Shown: piece after piece, positions 2,234 through 62,915 of the stretch | Numbering within the stretch: the first letter of the stretch is position 1 | Layout of the letters: each line of letters begins with the position of its first letter | Origin: an archaeon | GTDB taxonomy: Archaea > Nanobdellota > Nanobdellia > Woesearchaeales > UBA9642 | Direction of reading: 5' to 3' | NCBI GenBank assembly: GCA_020057295.1 | Contig: JAGVGF010000002.1 | Location: 24,776 to 88,775, forward strand | DNA: 64,000 bases | Made by a program: the position numbers and the translations under genes | Notes under the pieces: model-generated | The model's input: the letters and a program-made list of their open reading frames with translations, nothing else | Database searches by the model: none | What the model was told of the DNA's origin: nothing

Positions 2234-2319
2234 TGCGAGGGACGTGATTCGAACACGCGCACCCACTAAGGGACTAGCACCTCAAGCTAGCGCATTTGAC
2301 CAGGCTCTGCCACCCTCGC
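2234..2319 (-). tRNA. tRNA-Leu (anticodon GAG), class II with long variable arm, no encoded CCA
   Basis: Hand-folded on the minus strand. 7-bp acceptor GCGAGGG/CCCUCGC, 3-bp D stem, anticodon stem CUAGC/GCUAG with loop UUGAGGU (anticodon GAG), variable arm CCC-UUAGU-GGG, T stem-loop GCGUG-UUCGAAU-CACGU, discriminator A. Confidence 0.8.
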
Positions 2320-4758: not shown

Positions 4759-5589
4759 ATGAAGGAGACATATCTTAAATTTAAATTCAAAGATGTAGAT
4801 ATCAAAGTGTGTGTAACTATTTATGGAGATTCTGGTAAACAGTTATTGTGTTTACATGGTTTTGGTAGTTCTGGTAAAGATTTTGAAGATTTAGAAAAAT
4901 ACATGCCAGGTTATCAGATAGTTGCTATTGACTGGATAGGATTTGGTGATAGCAGCAAACCATTAAGAGAGATTGATACTTATGACGAGAAGTATTTAAC
5001 ATCATTCCTAGAACTTTTTATTAAGAAAGCGGTTCAGAAAAATATTCTACAAAAAAAGTTTAGTATATTAGCAGTTTCAATGTCTGGATTAATGACTGGA
5101 ATGGTTTATGATAATATAAAGAAACATTTAGAAAAACTTATTTTCTTAAATCCAGCTGGATTTGATAAAGATGTTAGTATGAAATTTTCAATGGTCATGG
5201 CCAATCCCTTACTAAAGAGAGAAGCATTCATTAAATTAATTACGAAAGATGTGTTTTGGAAAGAATTCTTAGGATTACACGACAGGGATAAAGTACAATT
5301 ATGGTCTAAAGTAGGAAGTGGAGAGTTTGAAGTATATCTACGATGTATTAATACATCTATGAGTATGACTGGTTCAATAAAAGATACACATATACATCAT
5401 AATTATCATGAAATAAAAGTTCCGGTATTAATGATTGGAAGTTATAGAGATACATTAATTACAGAACAAGAATATTTGCGTAAGGCATCAAAATATGGTT
5501 GGGATGTTGTAATAATACATCATTATGATCATATGATAATTAGCGAGAAGCCAAAAGAGATTGCAAAAGCAATAACAGATTTCTTATAA
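4759..5589 (+). CDS. alpha/beta-fold hydrolase
   Basis: 276 aa. LHGFGSSGKDF oxyanion/HG motif and a nucleophile-elbow-like SMSG (consensus GxSxG). Confidence 0.55.
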   Translation: MKETYLKFKFKDVDIKVCVTIYGDSGKQLLCLHGFGSSGKDFEDLEKYMPGYQIVAIDWIGFGDSSKPLREIDTYDEKYLTSFLELFIKKAVQKNILQKKFSILAVSMSGLMTGMVYDNIKKHLEKLIFLNPAGFDKDVSMKFSMVMANPLLKREAFIKLITKDVFWKEFLGLHDRDKVQLWSKVGSGEFEVYLRCINTSMSMTGSIKDTHIHHNYHEIKVPVLMIGSYRDTLITEQEYLRKASKYGWDVVIIHHYDHMIISEKPKEIAKAITDFL

Positions 5590-5622
5590 ATTACGAATGT
5601 ACTCCGACAATTCTTAAGATAA

Positions 5623-5632
5623 CTATATAAAT
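5623..5632 (+). promoter_or_regulatory. TATA-box-like element (ctatataaat) about 30-40 nt upstream of ATG 5663
   Basis: Consensus-like archaeal TATA (TATATAAA) at an appropriate distance from the start codon. Pattern only. Confidence 0.3.
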
Positions 5633-5662
5633 CCAAATATACTCTTAATTTTAGGTGATATC

Positions 5663-6127
5663 ATGGAAGATAAAACAGCAAAATTAATTGTAAAAATTAT
5701 CGCGATATTAGGATTCATTTCCGCAGCATTACTTATTGTGATGGGTGTGTTACTATTTTTGCAACTACAAAGTCCTGGTTGTGTAACCACAGGCGGATCA
5801 ACAAAATGTATCTCGCAAGATCTTGCTTCAAAGATTAATACTGAATATATTGTTGGAGGAATATTATTTATCATAGGCGCATTATTTGTAGTATTCGTTA
5901 ATATAAAATTATGGAACTATAAGAATTGGGCTAGAATATTAACTATGGCAGGATGTTTCTTATCGGTTGTATCATCATTTGGAGAAACATGGATTTTTAT
6001 AGTACTCTCTGTCATATTTAACGGCGTAATAATATATTTCTTAGGCATAGAACCATCTATAGTTAACTTATTTCAGAAAAAGACAGAAACAAAGAAAGTA
6101 AAGCCAAAGAAGACGAAAAAGAAATAA
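5663..6127 (+). CDS. small membrane protein (4 predicted TM helices, lysine-rich C-terminus)
   Basis: 154 aa with hydrophobic segments and a KKTETKKVKPKKTKKK tail. Confidence 0.45.
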   Translation: MEDKTAKLIVKIIAILGFISAALLIVMGVLLFLQLQSPGCVTTGGSTKCISQDLASKINTEYIVGGILFIIGALFVVFVNIKLWNYKNWARILTMAGCFLSVVSSFGETWIFIVLSVIFNGVIIYFLGIEPSIVNLFQKKTETKKVKPKKTKKK

Positions 6128-6187
6128 TTTTTATTTTTTTCTCTACTTTTCAGTAATATTTTTAAATCGTTCTTTGTACCTATTATC

Positions 6188-7024
6188 ATGGGGGTAGAAC
6201 TTGTAGTTTTAGATTTCGATGGAAATTTAACCAATGTAGATATTGAAGCTATCCCATTTGTTGAAAGTTATAAAACAGATTTTTCTAACACGCTTAATAT
6301 TGAAAGGCCTAAATTAGATTTGATTTGGGCGCATAAACAATCACTCATAGAATCAAATCCTTCGGCTTATGGATGGACTGTTAATGGAATGATTGTTGCA
6401 CCAGCATATGCTGACCCATTAATAATGTCAAGAACAATTGCAGGAATTCTACTTAAAGATTCAGGAATTACAGACGAATCAATAAGATCAAAAATGTTAG
6501 ACTCATTCTTTCAAAATAGTTATGGAAAGCTAGGGATTTCATTTAAAGAAGATGCTGACAGATTCTTATCAGGATTAAAAGAGAATATCGCTTGTTGTGT
6601 AATGACTAATTCAAAAACTGATGGTGTTGTAAAGAAGATTGCAAAATTACCCACAGACCATTCTGACATAGTTGTTTATGGAGATGCAAAGAAGTATCTT
6701 GTAACACCGGAATGGGAAGGTGTTGTTCCTAATTCAATAGAAAAAGATGGTTTTGGAAGACCATTATTTGTACGTAGACAACAATATTGGAATGCACTAC
6801 ATGCACTTATGCAAAAATATCATCTTCATCCAGAAAATGTTGCAGTAGTAGGAGACATATACGAACTTGATTTATTACTTCCAGAAATGGTCGGAATGCA
6901 CACTATATTAACGCCACGTGAAAAGACACCGGCTTTTGAGATTAATGCTGTTCTACAATCTCGTAAAGGATATGTTGCACAAAGTTTAGACGATGCATTA
7001 GACTATTTATTAATAATTAAATAA
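6188..7024 (+). CDS. HAD-superfamily hydrolase
   Basis: N-terminal VLDFDGNL (HAD motif I DxDG) and late VVGDIYELD (motif IV). Confidence 0.5.
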   Translation: MGVELVVLDFDGNLTNVDIEAIPFVESYKTDFSNTLNIERPKLDLIWAHKQSLIESNPSAYGWTVNGMIVAPAYADPLIMSRTIAGILLKDSGITDESIRSKMLDSFFQNSYGKLGISFKEDADRFLSGLKENIACCVMTNSKTDGVVKKIAKLPTDHSDIVVYGDAKKYLVTPEWEGVVPNSIEKDGFGRPLFVRRQQYWNALHALMQKYHLHPENVAVVGDIYELDLLLPEMVGMHTILTPREKTPAFEINAVLQSRKGYVAQSLDDALDYLLIIK

Positions 7025-7039
7025 TTCTTGTAGAAAGAT

Positions 7040-7489
7040 TTATTTTTCTTTAATACTACTTACATCTTTGATGGTTATCCATGCACATGCATTGCCGAAC
7101 CCTTCCTTATTGATATTAAAGGGTTTAATTTTTTGAACATTCTCTAAAAATACTAATATACAATAATTTTTTCCATCATAATAATCCGTATATTCAAGTG
7201 AGTTAAATCCTATAGCTCGACCATATTTTTGTATGATTGGCATTATCTTCTCTTTATTTAAATCATCAAAGAACAACACATCTTTCACTTTTGCTTTTAC
7301 AGTAATTGGTTCACCACAATCCTTAAAATATATTATATCTTCTTTTTTTATATTATGCCAAGGAGTTCTTTTAGTCTTATACCATCGACTTTCTATAGTT
7401 TTCTGACCAGAAATAATTTTTTGCAATAATCTTCTCTTTTTATCAAGAATAGCTATGTGATCCATAAAGCTCAATGTATTAATTTTCAA
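7040..7489 (-). CDS. ASCH-domain protein
   Basis: 149 aa with an ISGQKTIESRW (GxKxxExR) ASCH signature near the N-terminus. Confidence 0.45.
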   Translation of the reverse strand: MKINTLSFMDHIAILDKKRRLLQKIISGQKTIESRWYKTKRTPWHNIKKEDIIYFKDCGEPITVKAKVKDVLFFDDLNKEKIMPIIQKYGRAIGFNSLEYTDYYDGKNYCILVFLENVQKIKPFNINKEGFGNACAWITIKDVSSIKEK

Positions 7490-7500
7490 TAATAAACAAG

Positions 7501-7574
7501 GGCGGCCCGCGGGATTTGAACCCGCCCGAGAAGATCCACAGTCTTCTATGCTGCCAGGCTACATCAGGGCCACC
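7501..7574 (-). tRNA. tRNA-His (anticodon GUG) with genomically encoded G-1
   Basis: Hand-folded on the minus strand. G-1 plus GUGGCCC acceptor pairing with GGGCCGC-C73, D stem AUGU/GCAU, anticodon stem GAAGA/UCUUC with loop CUGUGGA, T arm GCGGG-UUCAAAU-CCCGC. Confidence 0.8.
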
Positions 7575-7612
7575 ATAATAAAGAAAGAAAATAAAGTTTG
7601 TTTAAAAAGGTT

Positions 7613-7807
7613 TTACTTCTTCTGTAGTAATTTATATTGAAATGTTCCTAATACTATTCCTAAAACTACGAATGCCCATGCAATTGGAATTAGCACTTCT
7701 ACATTATCTTGTGCTGCAAGTAATACTATTACTGCAATCACCATAAACACACCGCCTATTATTCCTGCTAAATCTGTTATTGGATTCCTATTTTTTGCTT
7801 CTGCCAT
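7613..7807 (-). CDS. small membrane protein (64 aa, 2 TM)
   Basis: Hydrophobic 64-aa ORF next to tRNA-His. Confidence 0.35.
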   Translation of the reverse strand: MAEAKNRNPITDLAGIIGGVFMVIAVIVLLAAQDNVEVLIPIAWAFVVLGIVLGTFQYKLLQKK

Positions 7808-7883
7808 ACTATTACCTCCTAATTATGTTATTATGCTTATTATTAATATCAATATTTATATATTTCATCATTTCCAAAGTAAT

Positions 7884-8618
7884 ATGGATAATCTTGATCA
7901 AGTAGGACAGCATTACATGATTGATAAGAAGTTAATTGAATTTATAGTAGATTCAGCAGATTTGAAAAAGACAGACGTAGTTCTTGAAATTGGTTATGGT
8001 AAGGGCGCATTAACAAAAAGTTTAGTTAAAAAATGTAAAGTCGTAGCGGTCGATATCGAAGAGAATGATTTAGATTTTATAGATTATAAATTAACTATTG
8101 TTCACAGTAATATTCTTGATAATTTTGAAGAATTGAATAAAAAATATCACTTTAATAAAATTGTTTCAAACATTCCTTATAATATTTCAGAACCTTAGAT
8201 GAGAAAAATATTTAAGACGGAAATACAATTGATAGTAATGACTGTTGGTGAAGATTTTGCTCAAGTCTTATCTAATGATAAAAGTCGTGTAGGGATAATT
8301 GCAAATTCACTTTATAATTTTAAGATACTTAAAATTGTTCCACCAAAAGTTTTCAGACCAATGCCTAGAGTTAATTCTGCTGTTATTTCATTAGACTTAG
8401 TTAAATCTAATGCGATTTCAAAAATGTATAAACAATTACTTTCTTTAGATGATAAAAAATTAAGAAATGCATTCGAGAAGATTCTTGTTGATAGAACAAA
8501 ACGTGAAGTCAAAGAGTTAACAACAATGCCTTTATTTTTGAAAAAATTTTACGAACTTGACAATAATGAGTTTGTGTTATTAAATAAGTTCATACATCTT
8601 CTATGTATGGAAAGATAG
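7884..8618 (+). pseudogene. ksgA: 16S rRNA (adenine-N6,N6)-dimethyltransferase KsgA/Dim1, interrupted by an in-frame TAG at 8196-8198
   Basis: ORF 7833..8198 contains the KsgA motifs QHYMID, EIGYGKGALT and NIPYNISEP. It ends at TAG and continues in the same frame as ORF 8199..8618 (MRKIFK...VPPKVFRPMPRVNSAVISL), which aligns to the KsgA segment after the NLPYNIS(T/S)P motif. Both ORF starts are congruent mod 3. Confidence 0.6.
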
Positions 8619-8675: not shown

Positions 8676-9461
8676 ATGAACTTAATAAAAGGCACTATGG
8701 AAAAATTAGAAGGAAGAGTAGCGGTTTACTCTAGGTTTATCCCTAATCCTAATGGTGATTGTAAAGATTGTAATCCTATTTTTTCCAATAGAGTTTTAGC
8801 GATGTATGGTTCAGAAAGTATTACAGAAATATCTGACATTTTAGGAACTCCTAAAGAATTTCTAAACAAGATGATGAGCGATGATGATCAATTAAAAGAT
8901 TTACTAGGCAGTTCTAAAGAAGGAAGAAACATTTATGTTTCACCAATCGTTGCAACAGTGGAAGATCATGTTAAATCATACTCTGGTGATATCATATTAT
9001 CAGGAAGTTTCAGTTGTCCAATAAAATGTATTAAAGCAAATATGATGAATATGGAATTATACGAGATGCATTATGACGAGCAAGTGAGTAGATCAACAGG
9101 AATTAATGTTCAACACGCAAAAGAGCATAAAGGTACAAGAGTTTTATACGATAGAAAAATTCCTTCTCTAGAATTAAGAAATATTTTAATGAACGAATAT
9201 ATTATACCTTTATTAGATGCTTCAACTAGTGGAGAAAAAGCGTATTTTGATGATGTTAGAAGTGGATTAATATTATTCAGTCAAGGTTCAGATTTCAAAC
9301 CAGATGTTAGAGCATTATGCGAATGGATAGAATTAGCTAAGAAAAATATGAATCCTAAAGTAGTAGAATGTTATATTGACAAAATGGTTGCAATACATAC
9401 TGAAGAATATTTAGTCGCAAAACAGAAAGATGATGCTATAAAAGCATTACTAAAAGTATAA
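8676..9461 (+). CDS. hypothetical protein with two Cys pairs (GDCKDCNP / CPIKC)
   Basis: 261-aa ORF. Possible Zn-binding Cys pairs. No confident family assignment. Confidence 0.4.
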   Translation: MNLIKGTMEKLEGRVAVYSRFIPNPNGDCKDCNPIFSNRVLAMYGSESITEISDILGTPKEFLNKMMSDDDQLKDLLGSSKEGRNIYVSPIVATVEDHVKSYSGDIILSGSFSCPIKCIKANMMNMELYEMHYDEQVSRSTGINVQHAKEHKGTRVLYDRKIPSLELRNILMNEYIIPLLDASTSGEKAYFDDVRSGLILFSQGSDFKPDVRALCEWIELAKKNMNPKVVECYIDKMVAIHTEEYLVAKQKDDAIKALLKV

Positions 9462-19039: not shown

Positions 19040-19438
19040 ATGGCTAATACAAAGGATAATTTTAAAAAATTTGCACCTATAATACTAAGATACGGGATAG
19101 GATTAGTATACTTATGGTTTGGTATAAGTCAGTTATTAAGTCCTGAAAATTTTGTCGGATATCTACCGGATTTTATCTTTAATTCAAGTTATGCTACTAC
19201 TTTCGTCATTATTAATGGGATATTTGAGATAATTGCTTCAATACTATTACTATCAGGTATTTTTACAAGGATAGTTGCAATACTTTTAGCTTTACATTTA
19301 CTTGCAATAACAATTGATGTGGGCTATGGTGAAATCGGTGTAAGAGATTTCGGTTTAACAATAGCTACTATAACGATATTTTTATGGGGTGAAGATGAAT
19401 GGTGTATGGAGAAAAAATGGAAAAAGACAAACAATTAA
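19040..19438 (+). CDS. DoxX-family membrane protein
   Basis: 132 aa, 4 TM, typical DoxX size and topology. Confidence 0.5.
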   Translation: MANTKDNFKKFAPIILRYGIGLVYLWFGISQLLSPENFVGYLPDFIFNSSYATTFVIINGIFEIIASILLLSGIFTRIVAILLALHLLAITIDVGYGEIGVRDFGLTIATITIFLWGEDEWCMEKKWKKTNN

Positions 19439-19491
19439 TTTCGGTTCCGATATTTTCGGAAAAACCTGTTAATGAAAAAAATGAAAATTTT

Positions 19492-20016
19492 ATGAGATTT
19501 GCATTAATGATATTCGCATTATTTGCAACAGCATCTTTGTTAATTACAGGATGTTCAGCAAGTACTCCTGTTACACAACCAAATCCTTCAGATTTAAGCA
19601 ATCCTAATGCTGCAAATGCTGGAGGGGTAACTCCATTAAATGAATCTAAAAATGTTAGTATAGATGCAACTAATAAGTCTGAAATTCAAAAAACTCAGGA
19701 TACTATCACAAATTTTGTTATTGCTGACGGAACGTATGCTGATCCAGTAACATATATGTCTCCAGGCGGTCAAAATAGTATTAAAATAAGTGTTACTACA
19801 AAAGGCGATGTTGTAACTGATGCATCTGTCACAGTAATAAATTGTGATATGACATCACAACGTTATGTAGGACAGTTTAACACAGCGCTTCCAAGCTTAG
19901 TTGTTGGAAAGAAGATAAGCGATATTACTATTCCGCATACAGTAAGCGGAAGTTCGTTAACATCTGCCGCGTTCGCAAAACATTTGAAAGACTTGGTTGT
20001 ACAACATCCAGGATAA
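19492..20016 (+). CDS. secreted lipoprotein-like protein (signal peptide with LITGC lipobox-like motif)
   Basis: ORF 19399..20016. The internal Met at 19492 begins MRFALMIFALFATASLLITGCSAS, followed by a Thr/Ser/Asn-rich mature region. Confidence 0.45.
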   Translation: MRFALMIFALFATASLLITGCSASTPVTQPNPSDLSNPNAANAGGVTPLNESKNVSIDATNKSEIQKTQDTITNFVIADGTYADPVTYMSPGGQNSIKISVTTKGDVVTDASVTVINCDMTSQRYVGQFNTALPSLVVGKKISDITIPHTVSGSSLTSAAFAKHLKDLVVQHPG

Positions 20017-32289: not shown

Positions 32290-33482
32290 TCTAATTCTTC
32301 TTTTTCTAGCTTGAAGTGTTCCATATTTTTTTCTACAAATTTCTTATCAGAATTCTTGAATATTATCCTGAGATATGGCATATTTTTTATTGCTTCTTTT
32401 CTTGATGTGTGTGTTTTTCCAGAAATTTTTTCTGCAATTGCTTTTCTTTTAGCATTTTTCTGGTTAGCCATCCATATCCTTAATATTCTATCGGTTGGTT
32501 TATATGATATAAAGTTCGGATTCTTTTCCGTCTTTGATATTGCAACTCCCACACTTAATAAGTTATATATGTATACATAAAATCTGTAATATTGCCATCT
32601 TCTTATTCTTCCAAAATACACGTCTGCTAATGATAGATTTTCGTATGCCTTAGCTAAATCTTCAGCTTTAGTATATTCTTTTGGCAGATTTTCATCTAAC
32701 CATAAAAATATTTTATCAATATCTTCTTCAACTTTATCATATGCGTTTATTGCTATTTCTGGACTTGTCGTCTTGAAAACTTTTAATAATGCATTTATTA
32801 TGGTTTCTTCACGTTCTCTGTCTGATGTTTCTTCAACATCCTTACGAGTAATTTTTCTGTTATTTCCACTAATATTTTCTAAATCATTTATTGCTGCTCT
32901 TAAATCTCCTTGCGATACTCGTGCCAAATGACTTATTGCATCTTCATCAAATTCTATTCCTTCTTTTTCACAGATACTTTTCAAGCGTACTGCTTGTTCT
33001 AATGCAGTTATTGCTTTATATTCTATCATTATAGAATTTTTTCTTATATCATTAAACTTTTGTTCCCATGGATCATTTGCTGTAAGAATTATTGGAAATG
33101 GTGATATATCGATAAATTTCACAATAGTTGAAACTCCACCACGATCTTCAGTTCCAGAAAGTCCATCAATTTCATCAATAAGAATTAATTTTCCTTTGCC
33201 AAATAATGACATCTGTTGAATTGCTGGTAGAACCTTGCTTTCTAAACCTTCAGTATTTCTAACATCTGAAGCATTTACTTCTATTATTTCTAAATCTAAC
33301 TCATTAGCTAATGCATGTATTGTGCTAGTTTTTCCAGTTCCAGAAGGACCATATATTAGTAATGCTTTACGAACTTTTCTAGAACTATACTCAGAAATCT
33401 TTTCTTTCAATTCCTTTAACGCCTTATCCTGACCAACTATTTCTTTAGTGGTTTTAGGCTTATATTTATAATTGAACGTCAT
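32274..33482 (-). CDS. rfcL: replication factor C large subunit
   Basis: 402 aa. Walker A GPSGTGKTS, EVNASD and LIDEIDGL...GG motifs characteristic of archaeal RfcL. Confidence 0.65.
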   Translation of the reverse strand: MTFNYKYKPKTTKEIVGQDKALKELKEKISEYSSRKVRKALLIYGPSGTGKTSTIHALANELDLEIIEVNASDVRNTEGLESKVLPAIQQMSLFGKGKLILIDEIDGLSGTEDRGGVSTIVKFIDISPFPIILTANDPWEQKFNDIRKNSIMIEYKAITALEQAVRLKSICEKEGIEFDEDAISHLARVSQGDLRAAINDLENISGNNRKITRKDVEETSDREREETIINALLKVFKTTSPEIAINAYDKVEEDIDKIFLWLDENLPKEYTKAEDLAKAYENLSLADVYFGRIRRWQYYRFYVYIYNLLSVGVAISKTEKNPNFISYKPTDRILRIWMANQKNAKRKAIAEKISGKTHTSRKEAIKNMPYLRIIFKNSDKKFVEKNMEHFKLEKEELDWLVK

Positions 33483-54245: not shown

Positions 54246-54965
54246 ATGTATAAAAATCAGAAAGTATCTGTCGTTTTTTCAACATATAACGAGAAACAAA
54301 CTATTAGGCAACAGATTAATGATTGTTTTGCTATACCTTATGTTGATGAAGTTGTTGTAGTTAATAATAATGCAGCAAAAGGTACTACAGAGGAAGTTCG
54401 TAAAACTAAAGCTAAATTATTCTTTGAAACTAAACAAGGTTACGGTCACGGTTATCAGAGAGGATTAAAAGAAGCTACGGGAAATATTATAATTATGTCT
54501 GAACCTGATGGAACATTTCATCACAAAGATATTATTAAACTTTTAGATTATTCTGACGAATTCGATGTGGTTTTTGGAACAAGAACTACTCAAGCTACTA
54601 TAATGAAAAATGCTAATATGGGTTTTTTTCTAAAATGGGGTAACTGGTTTATAGCTAAATTAATAGAAGTAGGATATAATACTACACATTTAAGCGATGT
54701 CGGTTGTACAATGAGATTAATAAAAAAATCTGCATTAAGGAAGATACAACCCCATTTTACCATTGGTGGTTCAACATTCGGTCCACAATTCATGGTCCTA
54801 GTAGTATTGAAAAAAATTCCTCACGTAGAAATACCAGTACATTATGGTACTAGGGTAGGTAAATCTATGGGTACAAAAAATAAATTCAACGCATTTATAA
54901 TGGGATTAAAAATGATTTGGATTGTATTCAGTTACAGAATCAAGGGTTGGTTTAAGAAATATTGA
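54246..54965 (+). CDS. family 2 glycosyltransferase (dolichyl/polyprenyl-phosphate sugar synthase, Dpm1/ArnC-like)
   Basis: 239 aa. VFSTYNEKQTI..., DEVVVVNNNAAKGT, and a DxD-like region EPDGT. GT-A fold, short soluble form. Confidence 0.65.
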   Translation: MYKNQKVSVVFSTYNEKQTIRQQINDCFAIPYVDEVVVVNNNAAKGTTEEVRKTKAKLFFETKQGYGHGYQRGLKEATGNIIIMSEPDGTFHHKDIIKLLDYSDEFDVVFGTRTTQATIMKNANMGFFLKWGNWFIAKLIEVGYNTTHLSDVGCTMRLIKKSALRKIQPHFTIGGSTFGPQFMVLVVLKKIPHVEIPVHYGTRVGKSMGTKNKFNAFIMGLKMIWIVFSYRIKGWFKKY

Positions 54966-54992
54966 TTGATAGTTTATTATTCGAGGTGTCAC

Positions 54993-55640
54993 ATGATTAA
55001 TGTCAACAAAATTTATGAGAGACGATTTGGTAAAGATGCTGTTTTTAGACAGAAAATGTATTCTGTGTTATGTTCAAAATTTTTCCAAAAATATATTTCT
55101 AAAAATGCTACGGTTTTAGATGTGGCTGCAGGATATTGCGAATTCATTAATAACATTCAAGCAAAGCATAAAATTGCTTTAGATATTAATCCTGATATAA
55201 GAAAATTTGCAGATAAATCGGTAAAGATTATACTAGCACCATCTACGGATATGAGCAAAATTTATTCTAACACTATAGATAATGTTTTCATAAGTAACTT
55301 TTTTGAACATATAACAAAAGAGGATATAATTAAGACACTTAATGAAATTCATCGTGTATTAAAAAAAGGCGGAAAATTAATGATATTACAACCTAATATT
55401 CGTTATAGTTATAATGATTATTGGATGTTTTTTGATCACATAACGCCTTTAGATGATAGAAGTTTATGTGAAGTCCTAGAATTGACGAATTTTAAAATCG
55501 TTGAGTCTAGGCCAAAATTCTTGCCTTATTCCACAAAAAGTAAGCTACCAAAATCTATAATATTATTGAGAATATATCTTAAGTTGCCAATACTACAAAG
55601 AATTATGGGTAAGCAAGCATTTGTTGTTGCACAAAAATAA
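54993..55640 (+). CDS. class I SAM-dependent methyltransferase
   Basis: Motif I VLDVAAGYCEF and LKKGGKLMI. The ORF-track TTG start at 54966 directly abuts the upstream stop; ATG 54993 is preferred. Confidence 0.55.
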   Translation: MINVNKIYERRFGKDAVFRQKMYSVLCSKFFQKYISKNATVLDVAAGYCEFINNIQAKHKIALDINPDIRKFADKSVKIILAPSTDMSKIYSNTIDNVFISNFFEHITKEDIIKTLNEIHRVLKKGGKLMILQPNIRYSYNDYWMFFDHITPLDDRSLCEVLELTNFKIVESRPKFLPYSTKSKLPKSIILLRIYLKLPILQRIMGKQAFVVAQK

Positions 55641-55734
55641 TTAAGATTATGTTCCGCGTATGTGTTGACTTAAGTGTGTACTTTCAGATTTGAAATTAAT
55701 AAACTTAATAAAACATTTGTCCTTCTAGTGTTTT

Positions 55735-56406
55735 ATGAAGATTTTTGTAGTACTGCCCGCGTATAATGAAGAGAAACAGATTGGTAATGTTATTCGTTCT
55801 CTTAAAAAGAATGGTTATAAGAATATTGTTGTTGTAGATGATGGTAGTTCCGATAAGACTTCGAGTATTTCTAGAAAAGAAGGTGCTATTGTTGTACGTA
55901 ATATTATGAATATGGGTGTTGGCGGAGCCAGTGTTGCTGGTATTGAATATTCGTTTAGGATTGGAGCAGATATTGTTGTCACAATAGATTCTGATGGTCA
56001 GCATGATGTGAAGGACATAAAAAAAGTTATTACACCATTGTTAAATAATAGTGCAGATGTTGTTAGTGGATCCAGAATGTTCAATCCAAAGGGCATGCCT
56101 TTAATAAGAAGAATTGGTAATTTCGGTCTAAGTTTTATAACATTTATTTTATTTGGTATATGGTCTACAGATTCACAAAGTGGTTTCAGGGCAGTCACAA
56201 AACATGCCTGGAAAAAGATGCATATAAAAGCTACAGGTTATGAATATAATTCTGACATGTTACGAGAGGTAAGATACCAAAATTTAAGGTTTAAAGAAGT
56301 TCCTATACGTGTAATATATACAGAATATTCGTTATCTAAAGGTCAAAGTGTTATGGGAGGAGTTAGGACATTTATTAGTATACTAAAAAGAAGATTTTTA
56401 GGTTAG
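55735..56406 (+). CDS. family 2 glycosyltransferase (Dpm1-like polyprenyl-phosphate glycosyltransferase)
   Basis: 223 aa. IFVVLPAYNEEKQI, VVVDDGSSDKT, and IDSDGQHD (DxD). Confidence 0.7.
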   Translation: MKIFVVLPAYNEEKQIGNVIRSLKKNGYKNIVVVDDGSSDKTSSISRKEGAIVVRNIMNMGVGGASVAGIEYSFRIGADIVVTIDSDGQHDVKDIKKVITPLLNNSADVVSGSRMFNPKGMPLIRRIGNFGLSFITFILFGIWSTDSQSGFRAVTKHAWKKMHIKATGYEYNSDMLREVRYQNLRFKEVPIRVIYTEYSLSKGQSVMGGVRTFISILKRRFLG

Positions 56407-56471
56407 TTTTTCTTGAGTTAAAATTAGCAAATTATATAAATGCACATTCTTTCTCGTAGAGTGGTGGTATA

Positions 56472-56816
56472 ATGAATATAGTTCAAATGCTAATTATAAT
56501 TTTTGCTGTATATGCTATAGTTAAAGTAGTTCTTAGACTGAGAGATAAATCATTAAGTCCTGTAGAATCTTTTTTATGGGCTATACTTTGGGTTGGAGTG
56601 ATATTCGCTGCCATATTCCCTAACACACTCATAGAACTTTCTAATGATTTAGGTTTGGGAAAAACATTGAATATGTTAGTATATCTTAGCATATTATTAT
56701 TGTTCTATTTAGTGTTTAGATTGTATAGTGCGCTTGACAAGTTAGATCATAGATTCAACACGCTTGTCAAAGAATTAAGTATTGAACGTACGATTAAACG
56801 TAAAAAAAGTAAGTGA
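56472..56816 (+). CDS. small GT2-associated membrane protein (DUF2304-like)
   Basis: 114 aa, 3 TM helices then a basic C-terminus. Genes of this size and topology commonly follow Dpm1-like GT2 genes. Confidence 0.4.
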   Translation: MNIVQMLIIIFAVYAIVKVVLRLRDKSLSPVESFLWAILWVGVIFAAIFPNTLIELSNDLGLGKTLNMLVYLSILLLFYLVFRLYSALDKLDHRFNTLVKELSIERTIKRKKSK

Positions 56817-56838
56817 AAAATAGGTTTGAAGAAATAAA

Positions 56839-57933
56839 ATGAAAATTTTAATTATATGTCCTGATTGGTTTCCGAATATTTCAGGTTTTGGAATATCTGC
56901 ATATGAGTTCTCTCAAGAATTACTTAAAGATAAGCATGAAGTAACAATAATAACATCTTCTCAGAAAAATCTTGATAAAAAAGGATTAAACGTTGTGAGT
57001 GTTAAAATGTTGTTTAACCCGTTAGGCAGAAATCCTATAGTTTTCGGATTGTACAATAAAATTAAGAATGTCGATTATGATGTAATATTGTTGTATAGTT
57101 ATATGTATGAAATGAATGTGCGTGTGGCATTATACAGAAAATTAGGTTTAATAAAAAAACCTGTTATTTTAATGTACAGAGGCAGTTTAGAAAATGATGT
57201 ACTGCCCTTCTTGAAAACATCGACAAAGATAGCGAAAAAAACATATGATGCAACACTTGCTAGAATGTTATTCAAAAATGTTGATTATACTATTTCTAAT
57301 TCTAAACCAACATTAAAGCTAATTAACGAAAAATATCTTGTCTCACATAAAAAAATGTCTTATATTTCTAGCGGCATACCTGTTATGGATTTTAAGAGAA
57401 GTAAGCTAAGTAATAAACGTGTATTATTTAATGGAAGGTTAATAGAAAATAAGGGTATAAACTTTTTTGGAAAAATATTAGAAACTATTCCAAAAGATTG
57501 GAAGTTTACAATTATTGGAGATGGTCCATTAGAGAAAGAAATTTTGAGATTAAAAAAGAAATATAAAAATATTGAATATTTAGGCAAGGTTTCACACGCT
57601 GTTGCTAAAGAAATGTACTCAAAGGCAGACATACTAATATTACCAACATTTGCTGAAGGATCGCCGCGTGTAGTTCTAGAAGCATGTGCATCGGGAGTTC
57701 CATCGATAGCATTTAACGTCGGGGATGTTCCAACAATACTTGATAACAATAAGAATGGTTATTGTATAGAAAGATATAACATAGAAAAATTTACAGAAAA
57801 ATTAGAATTATTGATAAAAAATAGGGAATTAAGAAAAAAATTAGGCGATAATGCCTATACTTTTGCAAGAAAAAATTTAGACTGGAAAATTGTTTATAAA
57901 AAAATGCTTAAAGAAATTAGAGGTTTGTTATGA
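56839..57933 (+). CDS. family 4 (GT-B) glycosyltransferase
   Basis: 364 aa. C-terminal EGSPRVVLEACASGVPSIA (E-x7-E-type GT4 motif). Confidence 0.7.
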   Translation: MKILIICPDWFPNISGFGISAYEFSQELLKDKHEVTIITSSQKNLDKKGLNVVSVKMLFNPLGRNPIVFGLYNKIKNVDYDVILLYSYMYEMNVRVALYRKLGLIKKPVILMYRGSLENDVLPFLKTSTKIAKKTYDATLARMLFKNVDYTISNSKPTLKLINEKYLVSHKKMSYISSGIPVMDFKRSKLSNKRVLFNGRLIENKGINFFGKILETIPKDWKFTIIGDGPLEKEILRLKKKYKNIEYLGKVSHAVAKEMYSKADILILPTFAEGSPRVVLEACASGVPSIAFNVGDVPTILDNNKNGYCIERYNIEKFTEKLELLIKNRELRKKLGDNAYTFARKNLDWKIVYKKMLKEIRGLL

Positions 57934-59129
57934 AGAAAAAAATATTCTTCCTAATAAATTCTCTTGAGATAGGAGGATCTGAAAGAGTAATATTAGAATT
58001 ATACAATCGTTTATCGAACAAATATGATGTAAAATTGATAACACTAAAAAATGTTACAAATTATGATTCTAAAATCAAAACAATTTCTTTAAGTAAAGTT
58101 ACAAAAACATCTAGAATGCTGGTTCATATTTCTTCTTATGTAAAAAAATTAAAAAAAATTATTACAGAAGAAAAACCTGATGTTTTAGTAAGTTTTTTGG
58201 AACTGAGTAACTTAGTCAATATATTTGCATGTAAAAATACAAAAACTAAATGTGTTATATCTGTGAGATCTACTCTCTCTGAAGTTTATGATAGAGGAAT
58301 ATATGGTAAAACATTTACTTATTTGATAAAAAAATTTTATCCGAAAGCCGACATAATCATAACTAATTCTAAATACTCAAAAATTGATTTAGTAAAAAGT
58401 TTTAACATTCCAGAAAAAAAAATATCGACGGTTTACAATCCATTAAACATAGAAAATGTTCAAAAATCTTCAATCGAAAAAATAGAGCGGAAATATGCTT
58501 CAATATTCGATGGCAAATCTAAGATATTGATTACCGTCGGTAGATTAATTGATGCGAAAGCACATCCAAATTTATTGCGTGTATTCTATAATTTAAAAAA
58601 AGAAGTAAAAAATGTGAAACTAGTAATCGTTGGAGATGGTCCATGGATGCAGAAACTCAAAGACATTATTAAAGAATTAGAATTAGAATCAGATGTATTC
58701 TTACTTGGCAGCCAGAAAAACCCTTACAAATATGTGAAAAAATCAGATATTTTCGTATATTCTTCAGTATATGAAGGTTTTCCTAATGCATTAATCGAAG
58801 GAATGGCTTGTGGAGTTCCTGTGATTTCTACCGATTGTAGATCTGGACCAAGAGAAATATTAGCTCCAGAAACCAATGTTCTAACGCAGGCCAAAAAATT
58901 AGAATTTGTCAAATATGGTTTATTATCTCCTGTTTTCAAGAAAGAACTAAACACAGACATTCACGCTTCCCTAAGCAAAGAGGAAGAGATATTTATGAGT
59001 GGCATAAAAACTCTTTTAAATAGTAAGAAATTATCAAAATCGTACGCTATTAAGGGTGAACTTAGGATTAAAGATTTTAATAGCGAAAATATGGCTAAAA
59101 ATTTTTTAAAAACGATTAAGGTGAATTGA
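57930..59129 (+). CDS. family 4 (GT-B) glycosyltransferase
   Basis: 399 aa. YEGFPNALIEGMACGVPVISTD GT4 motif. Start overlaps the upstream stop (ATGA). Confidence 0.7.
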   Translation: MKKKIFFLINSLEIGGSERVILELYNRLSNKYDVKLITLKNVTNYDSKIKTISLSKVTKTSRMLVHISSYVKKLKKIITEEKPDVLVSFLELSNLVNIFACKNTKTKCVISVRSTLSEVYDRGIYGKTFTYLIKKFYPKADIIITNSKYSKIDLVKSFNIPEKKISTVYNPLNIENVQKSSIEKIERKYASIFDGKSKILITVGRLIDAKAHPNLLRVFYNLKKEVKNVKLVIVGDGPWMQKLKDIIKELELESDVFLLGSQKNPYKYVKKSDIFVYSSVYEGFPNALIEGMACGVPVISTDCRSGPREILAPETNVLTQAKKLEFVKYGLLSPVFKKELNTDIHASLSKEEEIFMSGIKTLLNSKKLSKSYAIKGELRIKDFNSENMAKNFLKTIKVN

Positions 59130-60200
59130 GTGATTCCAAAAGATGTTGAATATTTAAAATGTATAAATTGTGGGCACGATTTGCTATTAAAAGTCTTCGA
59201 AACAGAAAAAGATGAATGTGTAGAAGGAAAATTATCCTGCAAACATTGTAACGAAGAGTGGCCCGTAATCAATGCAATACCGCGTTTGTTGCCTAAAAAC
59301 TTACTTAAAAATTTAGTTTTGCCTTATCATAAAGATTTCTTTGATAAATATCATTTTGATGTATCAGAAAAGAACAGATCCGATAAGTCCAGTAATGATG
59401 ATAAGTTAAAAAGTAAGACTGCTCAAAGTTTTGGTTTCGAGTGGTTAAAATATCCTAAAATATTAAACCAATTTGAGAAAGATTGGGAGAGATACTTTCA
59501 TCCGTTCATAACAAGAAAAGATATTAAAGGAAGTGTTGTAGCAGATTTTGGATGTGGGATGGCTAAACATGGATATTTTATTGGAAAATATGCTTCCAAA
59601 AAATATATTGGATTAGATTTAAGTGAGGCTACTGAGGCAGCATATAGAAATACTAAAAAATTCAAACCATTAATAGTACAGGCAGACATTTATCATATTC
59701 CGTTAAAAGGTGAAAAGATTGATATTTGTTATTCTATTGGTGTATTACATCATCTTCCAAATCCTGAAAATGGCTTCATAAGTATTATAAAGAATATGCG
59801 CAAAGGTTCTAAAATATTTATGTGGGTATACGGGCAAAGAGGAAATTCTCGTGCTCTATATTTATACAATCCAATACGTTTTGTGACAACTAGAATGAAT
59901 AGAAAATTTTTATATAATTTGTGTCACATTCCAGCTATTGCAGTACATTCATTAAACAGTGTATCTAAAGGATTATCAAAGATAGGATTAAAAAAATCTG
60001 CTAGATTAATTCCATTCAGTTATTATACAGATTTCCCGTACACTTTCAAGGTAAGCGACACTTTTGATACATTAGGAACACCAACTCAAATATACTATAA
60101 AATGAGTGAGATTGATAGTTGGTTCAAACATTCAAAATTAAAAAAATATCAATTAGAATATGATGTTGTACAAGGAATAAAAGGATATGGTGTAAAATAA
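59130..60200 (+). CDS. SAM-dependent methyltransferase with N-terminal Trm112-like zinc ribbon (GTG start)
   Basis: 356 aa. CINCGHDL...CKHCNEEWPVINAIPRLLP zinc ribbon followed by DFGCGMAKHGYF (motif I) and later motifs. Confidence 0.55.
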   Translation: MIPKDVEYLKCINCGHDLLLKVFETEKDECVEGKLSCKHCNEEWPVINAIPRLLPKNLLKNLVLPYHKDFFDKYHFDVSEKNRSDKSSNDDKLKSKTAQSFGFEWLKYPKILNQFEKDWERYFHPFITRKDIKGSVVADFGCGMAKHGYFIGKYASKKYIGLDLSEATEAAYRNTKKFKPLIVQADIYHIPLKGEKIDICYSIGVLHHLPNPENGFISIIKNMRKGSKIFMWVYGQRGNSRALYLYNPIRFVTTRMNRKFLYNLCHIPAIAVHSLNSVSKGLSKIGLKKSARLIPFSYYTDFPYTFKVSDTFDTLGTPTQIYYKMSEIDSWFKHSKLKKYQLEYDVVQGIKGYGVK

Positions 60201-60201
60201 T

Positions 60202-62088
60202 ATGTGCGGAATAAACGGATTTAATTGGGAAGATAAGAATTTAATTAGTTCTATGAATAAAAACATTAAACATAGAGGTCCAGACGATCAAGGAACATTT
60301 GTGAGTAATAGATTAAGTCTAGCTCAAGTAAGATTATCGATTATAGATTTGACGCCAGCAGGTCATAATCCTATGTTTTATGATAAAAAAACAGGTGCAT
60401 TTTCAGAAAGACATCAAAAACATTTAATGAATGATGCTAAATTAGGAATAGTTTTTAATGGAGAAATATACAATTATCAAGATATTAAATCTGAACTAGA
60501 ATTAAAAGGATACGCTTTTTCAACAAAATGTGACACCGAAGTCATACTAGCAAGTTATCTCGAGTGGGGATATGATTGTGTTAAGCATTTTAATGGAATG
60601 TGGGCATTCTGTATATATGATTCTAAGAAGAAAATCTTATTTTGTTCAAGAGATAGACTTGGAGTAAAACCATTCTATTACTATTATAAGAACGGAAAAT
60701 TCATATTCAGTTCAGAACTCAAGGGAATATTAGCACACAAGAATTTAAAGATTAACACTAAAGAAAATATTAACAAAGATGCAGTACAATTATACTTCTC
60801 ATTAGGATTTGTACCATCACCATATTCCATATATCATGACGTATTTAAACTTGAAGCTAGACAGAATTTGATATTTGATCTTTCATCTAAAAAAATTAAG
60901 AGACAATGGTATTATTATGAGATTCCAAAACTAAATCCTGTTCATGATAAGAAGAAATTGATAGAAGAAGGTCGAGAAATATTAAGAGATGCTGTCAGAA
61001 TAAGAATTATTGCAGATGTTCCTGTAGGAGCATTCTTATCAGGAGGATTGGATAGTTCAACCGTAGTTGGTGTGATGAAAGATTTTACTGAATTAAAAAA
61101 ATTACACACATTTTCCATAGGTTTTGAAGGAAAATACGATGAAACAAAATATATTAATATAGTAAAAAACTATTTTGGAACAAAACACCATCATTATTAT
61201 TTCAAAGAGAAAGATTTTGAAAATTTGATAGATACATACTCGTTTATGTATGATGAACCATTTTGGGATTATTCAGGATTTCCAACATACAAAGTTTCAG
61301 AATTAGCAAAAAAGCATGTAACAGTGTGTTTAAGCGGTGATGGTGGGGATGAAATATTTGGAGGATATAATACTCATGTTGCAGGATATCGTATGGATTT
61401 AATATATAAATTACCAAGATTTTTACGTTTTATTGGTTCTAAAATACCTGCAAGGAAGAATTTAAACGGCTTTGCTTCAGCGTATTTATTAAAAGAAGCA
61501 TTTAAAGCATCCCTTAAAGATAAAAAATATTTTTATGCTACAGCAATATCAGAAGACAGTATACGACCAGAAGTATATAAAAAAATAACAATTCAAAAAT
61601 TAGACTATGCATTAAAAAAAGGAAACAATAAACTTTCAGAAGCTTTACGAATTTATGATCTAATGTCCAATTCTTTACAGGATAATTTTTTGGTTAAGGT
61701 AGATCGCGCATCGATGATGCACGCACTTGAAGTAAGGAGTCCTTTTTTAGATTATAGATTTGTAGAATTTGCTCAAAAAATACCTTCAGAATGGAAACAA
61801 AATTCTATTAAAACAAAGATTCTCATGAGAGAAATAATTAAAGATATTGTTCCAAAAGAAATAGTAAATCGTGGAAAACAAGGTTTTAGCCCGCCAATCG
61901 ATAAATGGATACTACAAAAGAAATATTCTAAAGATTTTAAAAAATATATCGAGCAAATAAAATCTATTGACAGCGATATTTATTTATTCTATAAGAATAA
62001 AGTTTTTAAAAATGATAATGTATTATACACTAACTACAGAATAAGATTATATCTATTCGGCTTATGGAGTAAAAAATGGTTAAAGTAG
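60202..62088 (+). CDS. asnB: asparagine synthetase-type glutamine amidotransferase (AsnB/WbpS-like)
   Basis: 628 aa. N-terminal MCGI nucleophile, FNGEIYNY, and the PP-loop FLSGGLDSS. Confidence 0.8.
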   Translation: MCGINGFNWEDKNLISSMNKNIKHRGPDDQGTFVSNRLSLAQVRLSIIDLTPAGHNPMFYDKKTGAFSERHQKHLMNDAKLGIVFNGEIYNYQDIKSELELKGYAFSTKCDTEVILASYLEWGYDCVKHFNGMWAFCIYDSKKKILFCSRDRLGVKPFYYYYKNGKFIFSSELKGILAHKNLKINTKENINKDAVQLYFSLGFVPSPYSIYHDVFKLEARQNLIFDLSSKKIKRQWYYYEIPKLNPVHDKKKLIEEGREILRDAVRIRIIADVPVGAFLSGGLDSSTVVGVMKDFTELKKLHTFSIGFEGKYDETKYINIVKNYFGTKHHHYYFKEKDFENLIDTYSFMYDEPFWDYSGFPTYKVSELAKKHVTVCLSGDGGDEIFGGYNTHVAGYRMDLIYKLPRFLRFIGSKIPARKNLNGFASAYLLKEAFKASLKDKKYFYATAISEDSIRPEVYKKITIQKLDYALKKGNNKLSEALRIYDLMSNSLQDNFLVKVDRASMMHALEVRSPFLDYRFVEFAQKIPSEWKQNSIKTKILMREIIKDIVPKEIVNRGKQGFSPPIDKWILQKKYSKDFKKYIEQIKSIDSDIYLFYKNKVFKNDNVLYTNYRIRLYLFGLWSKKWLK

Positions 62089-62915
62089 AATTGTATGAAC
62101 ATACCTATAAGCGAAAGAAACACTTTAGTTTTGGACAAAATTGGAAAGAGTATTTGAATTCTCTAAATGAAGATAAAATTAACGAAGCAAAGAAATCTCT
62201 TACCAGATTTTTGGGCGGAAAAGATAAAATACGAAATAAAACTTTTGTAGATATAGGTTGTGGCAGCGGATTATTCTCTCTTGCAGCGTTTCTACTGGGT
62301 GCAAAAAAAGTAGTAAGTGTAGATATAGATGATGCTTCTTTATACTGTGTAAACACACTTAGAAAAAAATATTCGTCTAATCCGGATAAATGGGTTGTAA
62401 AAAAGGGTTCTGCATTAGATAAATCATTTATGAAAAGACTAGGAAAATTTGACATAGTGTATAGTTGGGGAGTGCTTCATCATACAGGAAATATGTATCA
62501 GGCATTCGATAATCTAACAATGCTTTCTCATGAAAAAAGTATAATCTATTTGGCAATATATAATAATAATAGAATATTTTTTGAAGGAACATCCCCTTTC
62601 TGGCTTAAAATCAAAAAGATTTATAATTCCTCAAATAAAATTATTAAAAAATGTATTTATTATATATATACATTATATCTCATATTTGGAATAACTGTAT
62701 CAGGAAAAAATACTATAAAATATATTAAGGATTATCATACATTACGTGGAATGAACTTTTTTACTGATATAAAAGACTGGCTTGGCGGATATCCTTACGA
62801 ATATGCGTCAACGCAAGAAATTACTGATTATTTCAAAAATCTAGGTTATATTGCTAAAAAAATCAGCAAAGCAAGATCATTAGGATGCAATGAATATTTG
62901 ATTGGTCGTCTTTAA
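62076..62915 (+). CDS. class I SAM-dependent methyltransferase
   Basis: 279 aa. FVDIGCGSGLFSL (motif I), VYSWGVLHH. Confidence 0.55.
   Translation: MVKVELYEHTYKRKKHFSFGQNWKEYLNSLNEDKINEAKKSLTRFLGGKDKIRNKTFVDIGCGSGLFSLAAFLLGAKKVVSVDIDDASLYCVNTLRKKYSSNPDKWVVKKGSALDKSFMKRLGKFDIVYSWGVLHHTGNMYQAFDNLTMLSHEKSIIYLAIYNNNRIFFEGTSPFWLKIKKIYNSSNKIIKKCIYYIYTLYLIFGITVSGKNTIKYIKDYHTLRGMNFFTDIKDWLGGYPYEYASTQEITDYFKNLGYIAKKISKARSLGCNEYLIGRL

Follow-up and report, generated by a model that had tools for sequence, protein, structure and literature searches.

A TAG codon at a conserved leucine position interrupts an otherwise intact ksgA gene in a Woesearchaeota-like archaeon

KsgA/RsmA/Dim1 enzymes (PF00398; TIGR00755) are 16S/18S rRNA adenine-N6,N6-dimethyltransferases. 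In the archaeal type, represented by M. jannaschii Dim1 (3grr) and P. horikoshii KsgA (8x4g), the sequence motifs of the enzyme and a C-terminal helical domain lie on one uninterrupted chain. The C-terminal helical domain of KsgA contributes to rRNA binding. KsgA/Dim1 has been deleted without a laboratory growth defect in Haloferax volcanii, Sulfolobus acidocaldarius, and Pyrococcus furiosus (PMC7897474). Nanoarchaeum equitans, a host-dependent DPANN archaeon with a reduced genome, has no RsmA/Dim1 homologue; its helix-45 adenosines are unmethylated, and there is evidence of compensating sRNA-guided 2'-O-methylation (Seistrup et al. 2016/17, PMC5389701). A different kind of precedent comes from the split genes of DPANN/Nanoarchaeota and from translationally coupled gene pairs (Huber et al. 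2019, 2023; PMC6728339, PMC10666635). Termination-reinitiation in archaea is found only at overlaps or at near-zero distances between genes (PMC10666635; PMC6728339).

The ksgA gene described here resembles each of these systems in part. With archaeal KsgA/Dim1 it shares colinear full-length homology, the motifs, and the C-terminal helical domain; unlike those uninterrupted genes, it carries a TAG codon at a conserved leucine position. Like N. equitans, the archaeon that carries it is of the host-dependent, reduced-genome DPANN kind and may do without the near-universal helix-45 dimethyltransferase. However, whereas N. equitans has no gene at all, this gene is complete apart from one base, and its relatives keep theirs intact. 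With the split genes and coupled pairs it has in common two adjacent same-strand ORFs of one family that meet at a 0-nt junction, a geometry that would permit reinitiation. It differs from them in that the split is not shared by relatives, falls in the middle of a helix rather than at a domain boundary, and costs a conserved residue, and in that the second ORF opens with the codon that came next in the ancestral gene.

The window analyzed covers 64 kb of a single metagenome contig (268 kb) that belongs to a Woesearchaeota-like (DPANN) archaeon, with a G+C content of ∼31% and a coding density of 92%. A single record carries the C-terminal ORF: contig Ga0394675_008066 (267,877 bp) of JGI metagenome 3300038439, in which the two KsgA halves are called as separate genes of 104 and 139 aa. 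The other database members of both half-protein clusters are NCBI gene calls only, on a contig of equal length, and come from the same assembly deposited twice. Named KsgA homologues are annotated nearly throughout as Candidatus Woesearchaeota (DPANN). Two GTDB records (CAZJFT010000018.1 and CAZQDS010000010.1) titled "uncultured Methanosarcinales archaeon" encode a KsgA that is 53% identical and carries the motif NIPYNISEPLM; these titles are probably taxonomic mislabels.

The first-pass annotation of this DNA had reported two ORFs in the same frame parted only by a TAG codon, and both the ORF list and the sequence bear this out (Table 1). Around the stop, the sequence reads AAC ATT CCT TAT AAT ATT TCA GAA CCT TAG ATG AGA AAA. 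The upstream ORF had been given a start at 7833 (7833..8198, with 8199..8618 downstream). This start does not hold: the gene almost certainly begins at the ATG at 7884, judging from the homologues, which begin there (P0006: MDNLDQ), and from the 104-aa JGI call. The TATA-box-like TTTATATA at 7855-7862 may be an archaeal promoter from which a leaderless ksgA mRNA is transcribed, although chance motifs of this kind occur in an AT-rich genome. No SD-like motif was found upstream of the ATG at 7884.

Table 1. Features of the interrupted ksgA gene and of the genes inserted upstream of it (positions in the window)
Feature	Position	Strand	Evidence or context
Inserted genes: alpha/beta hydrolase; 154-aa ORF without Pfam match; HAD-like hydrolase	4759-7807		Extra genes relative to the intact relative GCA_053576835.1; the range also spans the ASCH-domain gene, tRNA-His, and the 64-aa ORF
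ASCH-domain protein	7040-7489	-	Among the inserts upstream of ksgA
tRNA-His	7500-7573	-	Among the inserts upstream of ksgA
TATA-box-like TTTATATA	7855..7862	+	∼25 nt 5' of ATG 7884; read from sequence
KsgA/Dim1, N-terminal 104 codons	7884..8195	+	Pfam RrnaAD 65.5 bits, profile 7-114; JGI call; alignment A1
In-frame TAG replacing conserved Leu codon	8196..8198	+	Leu in 31/31 relatives; relatives' codons
KsgA/Dim1, C-terminal 139 codons	8199..8615	+	Pfam RrnaAD 36.2 bits, profile 128-235; alignment A1
Natural terminator of ksgA, also TAG	8616..8618	+	Closest homologues end at same position

Homology to KsgA runs through the stop without a frameshift, as had been proposed. The joined sequence gave a single match to Pfam RrnaAD (PF00398; profile positions 7-233 of 263, 111.1 bits), and each half also passed the cut-off of 24 bits alone. 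In tblastn, the repaired protein aligned over 7884-8615 without a gap (244/244 residues), and alignments to archaeal Dim1/KsgA structures in the PDB crossed the stop uninterrupted, with Ile or Phe opposite it. The best solved relatives were M. jannaschii Dim1 (3grr, E 1.7e-22) and P. horikoshii KsgA (8x4g). The SAM motif I (E-x-G-x-G-x-G, here LEIGYGKGALT) and the catalytic motif IV (N-(L/I)-P-Y, here NIPY) are both present, in invariant columns of an alignment of the window protein with 31 relatives of 41-68% identity (alignment A1). The relatives encode KsgA/Dim1 in a single ORF, which the in-frame TAG divides here. With TIGR00755, the protein scored 127.3 bits, below the equivalog cut-off of 171 bits; since five intact relatives from the clade also fall short of it (113.8-131.6 bits), the shortfall is a trait of the clade and not a sign of decay. 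The Erm profile gave 102.9 bits against a cut-off of 212, and KsgA ranks above Erm. No second KsgA/Erm-like copy was found by tblastn within the 64-kb window.

A protein search returned 279 KsgA homologues. Among the best 120 of these, the good matches were single proteins of about 240-270 aa, and the closest was 65% identical by BLASTP (68% in alignment A1). The comparison with orthologues, set beforehand as a check on the interruption, found all relatives intact at this point (31 aligned; best 120 of 279 homologues), which makes the break lineage-specific. At the column of the TAG, all 31 aligned relatives have leucine, within the motif N-I-P-Y-N-I-S-E-P-L-M. The earlier proposal that a single sense codon was replaced therefore stands, but the residue, described there as usually Phe or Leu, is Leu in this clade. 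For the nine relatives with DNA, the leucine codon is TTG in seven cases; one of the other two uses TTA and the other CTC. In the window as a whole, by contrast, TTA outnumbers TTG five to one (1027 versus 210). Given TTG in seven of these nine, the ancestral codon was most likely TTG, and the stop would then have arisen by one T>A transversion at 8197, which is about position 32,972 of the contig. The Met that follows is conserved in most relatives (6/9 of those with DNA). On the alignment, the ATG that opens the second ORF is the inherited Met of a conserved Leu-Met pair and not a new start.

The position of the break in the fold was read from an AF2 model of P0001, the closest intact homologue, with 42 relatives (mean pLDDT 90.9, pTM 0.86), used as a proxy. 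In this model, residues 106-110 (KIVSN) form beta4, 113-124 (YNLSEPLMRLIF) a helix, and 131-137 beta5. The TAG corresponds to L119, halfway along the helix that lies between beta4 and beta5. As modeled, the break is at neither a loop nor a domain border, and the conserved Leu is missing from both pieces. The N-terminal part, which carries motifs I and IV, corresponds to the SAM-binding half of the Rossmann fold, so the 104-aa product would hold beta1-beta4 and the first half of helix alphaD. The 139-aa remainder, whose first residue is the ancestral Met, would hold the second half of that helix, beta5-beta7, and the C-terminal helical domain.

Constraint on the two halves was assessed by a leave-one-out count over the 82 alignment columns that are at least 90% conserved. 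Besides the stop, the window KsgA departs at 4/82 of these columns (T>V, I>V, L>M, and K>R), and all four changes are conservative. Two departures fall in each half, the C-terminal half departing at 2 of its 32 conserved columns. For intact relatives, the median over the same 82 columns was 2 departures, with values from 0 to 25. By this count, relaxed selection has left no sign on either side of the stop. Because both halves are conserved like those of intact relatives, the lesion is very young, not real, or harmless. An error, or an arrangement that still functions, would explain the lack of secondary damage no less well than a very recent mutation.

Gene order places the locus in an orthologous setting. 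In the intact relative GCA_053576835.1, an S13-S4-S11-RpoD cluster is followed by ksgA and a convergent class-V aminotransferase, and the order in the window matches. The neighborhood is conserved in outline only, since the window has extra genes at 4759-7807, between the S13 ribosomal cluster and ksgA. Just 5' of ksgA lies a 64-aa hydrophobic ORF (7613-7807, minus strand), where the relative has a 134-aa ORF without Pfam match. On the other side, ksgA and the convergent class-V aminotransferase are separated by a 261-aa ORF without Pfam match (8676-9461, plus strand). In the relative, ksgA (5001-5729) directly abuts the aminotransferase (5716-6924), which marks this ORF as a lineage-specific insertion. 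Within the ribosomal protein cluster, ARAGORN called an 86-nt tRNA-Leu(GAG) (2234-2319, minus strand); the Rfam tRNA model at its gathering threshold reports the other three tRNAs and not this one, which may be an unusual tRNA, one with a long variable arm, or a filter miss. No rRNA genes were found in the 64-kb window.

The use of TAG and the integrity of the remaining genes were examined across the whole window. The 66 ORFs end in TAA (43), TGA (12), or TAG (11, including the internal ksgA stop). Apart from that internal stop, TAG ends ten genes, among them L13, S13, and ksgA itself, and L13 is 139 aa long both here and in GCA_053576835.1. Genome-wide reassignment of TAG was rejected on these grounds, as TAG ends ten other genes including those for ribosomal proteins; moreover, when TAG is read as sense, no other homologous pair of ORFs in the window merges. 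Four other pairs of neighboring ORFs share a frame and are parted by one stop (TAG 35555, TGA 54963, TGA 59127, and TAA 6125). Three of these consist of complete, unrelated Pfam domains (HD/YchF-type GTPase, GT2/methyltransferase, and GT1/methyltransferase), and the fourth is an ORF without Pfam match followed by a HAD hydrolase. A further three pairs that overlap in different frames are unrelated genes and not frameshifts. General sloppiness of the assembly, or gene decay, was likewise rejected for the window, because the neighboring and overlapping pairs are all unrelated complete genes. No other interrupted or frameshifted gene was found among the ∼66 in the 64-kb window, and the standing of ksgA as the sole interrupted gene in 64 kb argues against both a code change and a generally poor consensus.

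Several features of the window came to light in this survey. From 54246 to 62915 (plus strand) runs a series of glycosyltransferase, class-I methyltransferase, and asparagine-synthase genes, with a G+C content of 0.27-0.29 and a positive GC skew; the lowest G+C bins of the window are at this end. The region is probably a surface-glycan biosynthesis island. Within it, two glycosyltransferase-to-methyltransferase pairs abut in frame with a 0-nt gap (TGA-TTG at 54963-54968 and TGA-GTG at 59127-59132). With complete Pfam domains on either side, both look like tightly coupled genes and not interrupted fusions. Elsewhere on the plus strand (19040-20016), the last 40 nt of a DoxX-family ORF (19040-19438) are shared, in a different frame, with a 205-aa ORF without Pfam match (19399-20016); the latter probably starts further downstream than it was mechanically called.

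The first-pass annotation had set four readings side by side without choosing among them: a very recent nonsense mutation, a sequencing or assembly error, programmed readthrough, and a split gene expressed as two parts. The evidence favors the former two over the latter two. We give a probability of about 0.6 to a single recent T>A change at 8197 that turned the conserved Leu codon TTG into TAG, is private to the lineage or population, and leaves KsgA inactivated or crippled. This would be an event of an ordinary kind, a one-base nonsense change being the commonest way in which a gene is broken. Distinctly less probable, but to be taken seriously, is an artefact of the assembly or consensus, or a minority strain variant, behind which the true gene has TTG (Leu) and encodes an intact KsgA of 244 residues. 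The TAG allele is known from one assembly only, one base separates the gene from its inferred ancestor, and the rest of ksgA is conserved as in intact relatives. Nor was any independent contig of the same species found in JGI metagenome contigs or GTDB representatives: a search for same-species or same-strain sequence elsewhere gave best matches of 50-54% in the former and 53% in the latter, and the protein database came no closer than 65% by BLASTP. Against an error, the consensus looks clean, with the other ∼65 genes unbroken and coding sequence dense throughout. A wrong base rarely persists into the consensus of a 268 kb contig.

The readings in which the gene still works, whether as two pieces or through the stop, are improbable even when taken together. 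In the two-piece arrangement, ribosomes would stop at the TAG and reinitiate at the abutting ATG, and the fragments of 104 and 139 aa would associate non-covalently into an active enzyme. A stop-to-start distance of 0 nt is compatible with termination-reinitiation, and zero spacing recurs at two other junctions of this genome and 4-nt overlaps at five, so that TAG-ATG resembles its junctions between coupled genes; both halves are fully conserved, and the cut parts the sheet into beta3-2-1-4 and beta5-7-6. The ATG directly after the stop had been offered as a hint of a split gene. However, it is an inherited Met and not an acquired start, no SD-like motif was found before it, and the break falls within helix 113-124 (P0001 numbering), deleting a Leu present in 31/31 relatives. 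None of the best 120 of 279 homologues is split at the TAG site; four short homologues among these 120 read through SEPLM and are cut elsewhere. A split made in a single step by a nonsense mutation would also have had no time for optimization. We regard a two-piece KsgA as unlikely on this evidence. Still less credible is programmed decoding of the TAG, by pyrrolysine, a suppressor tRNA, stimulated readthrough, or a code change, to give the full-length protein. Its sole support is that frame and conservation are kept 3' of the TAG. The codon is a normal terminator that closes ten other window genes where their ends are expected, no other window gene shows homology that continues past an internal TAG, and none of the four window tRNAs has a CUA anticodon. 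RNA folding gave no support for a stimulatory structure, as the stretch of 125 nt that begins at the TAG is no more stable than shuffled sequences (z = -0.58), and the site is occupied in relatives by an ordinary conserved Leu and by no special residue.

Under the recent nonsense mutation, translation from the ATG at 7884 would stop after 104 residues. The predicted product would keep the SAM-binding half of the enzyme, and because it would lack beta5-beta7 and the C-terminal domain, we infer that dimethyltransferase activity is abolished or badly impaired. Reinitiation at the abutting ATG may yield some C-terminal fragment, but the enzyme would still be cut in mid-helix and would lack the conserved Leu. 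Such an allele could be tolerated, KsgA/Dim1 not being essential in archaea. With no further damage in the gene, the event would be very young, and the position may still be polymorphic in the sampled population. Loss or splitting of ksgA had been called notable for a reduced genome; it is less so, given that the gene can be deleted in three archaea (PMC7897474) and is absent from N. equitans (PMC5389701). A ksgA nonsense allele in a DPANN population is unsurprising for the same reasons.

For annotation, the two ORFs should be merged in the JGI and NCBI records as one ksgA pseudogene or disrupted gene and not kept as two methyltransferases. As it stands, the finding carries little weight: the gene is non-essential, the allele comes from a single metagenome assembly, and it may not be real. 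We think it improbable that this lineage is a second DPANN group, after N. equitans, at the start of KsgA/Dim1 loss, or that it has a working two-piece KsgA made by reinitiation at TAG-ATG. A true two-piece KsgA would show that a class-I methyltransferase can, in nature, withstand being cut between beta4 and beta5. If the TAG allele is true and at high frequency, it would be of modest importance: a near-universal factor of ribosome biogenesis would then be in the course of being lost from a free-sampled DPANN population, adding to the single precedent of N. equitans.
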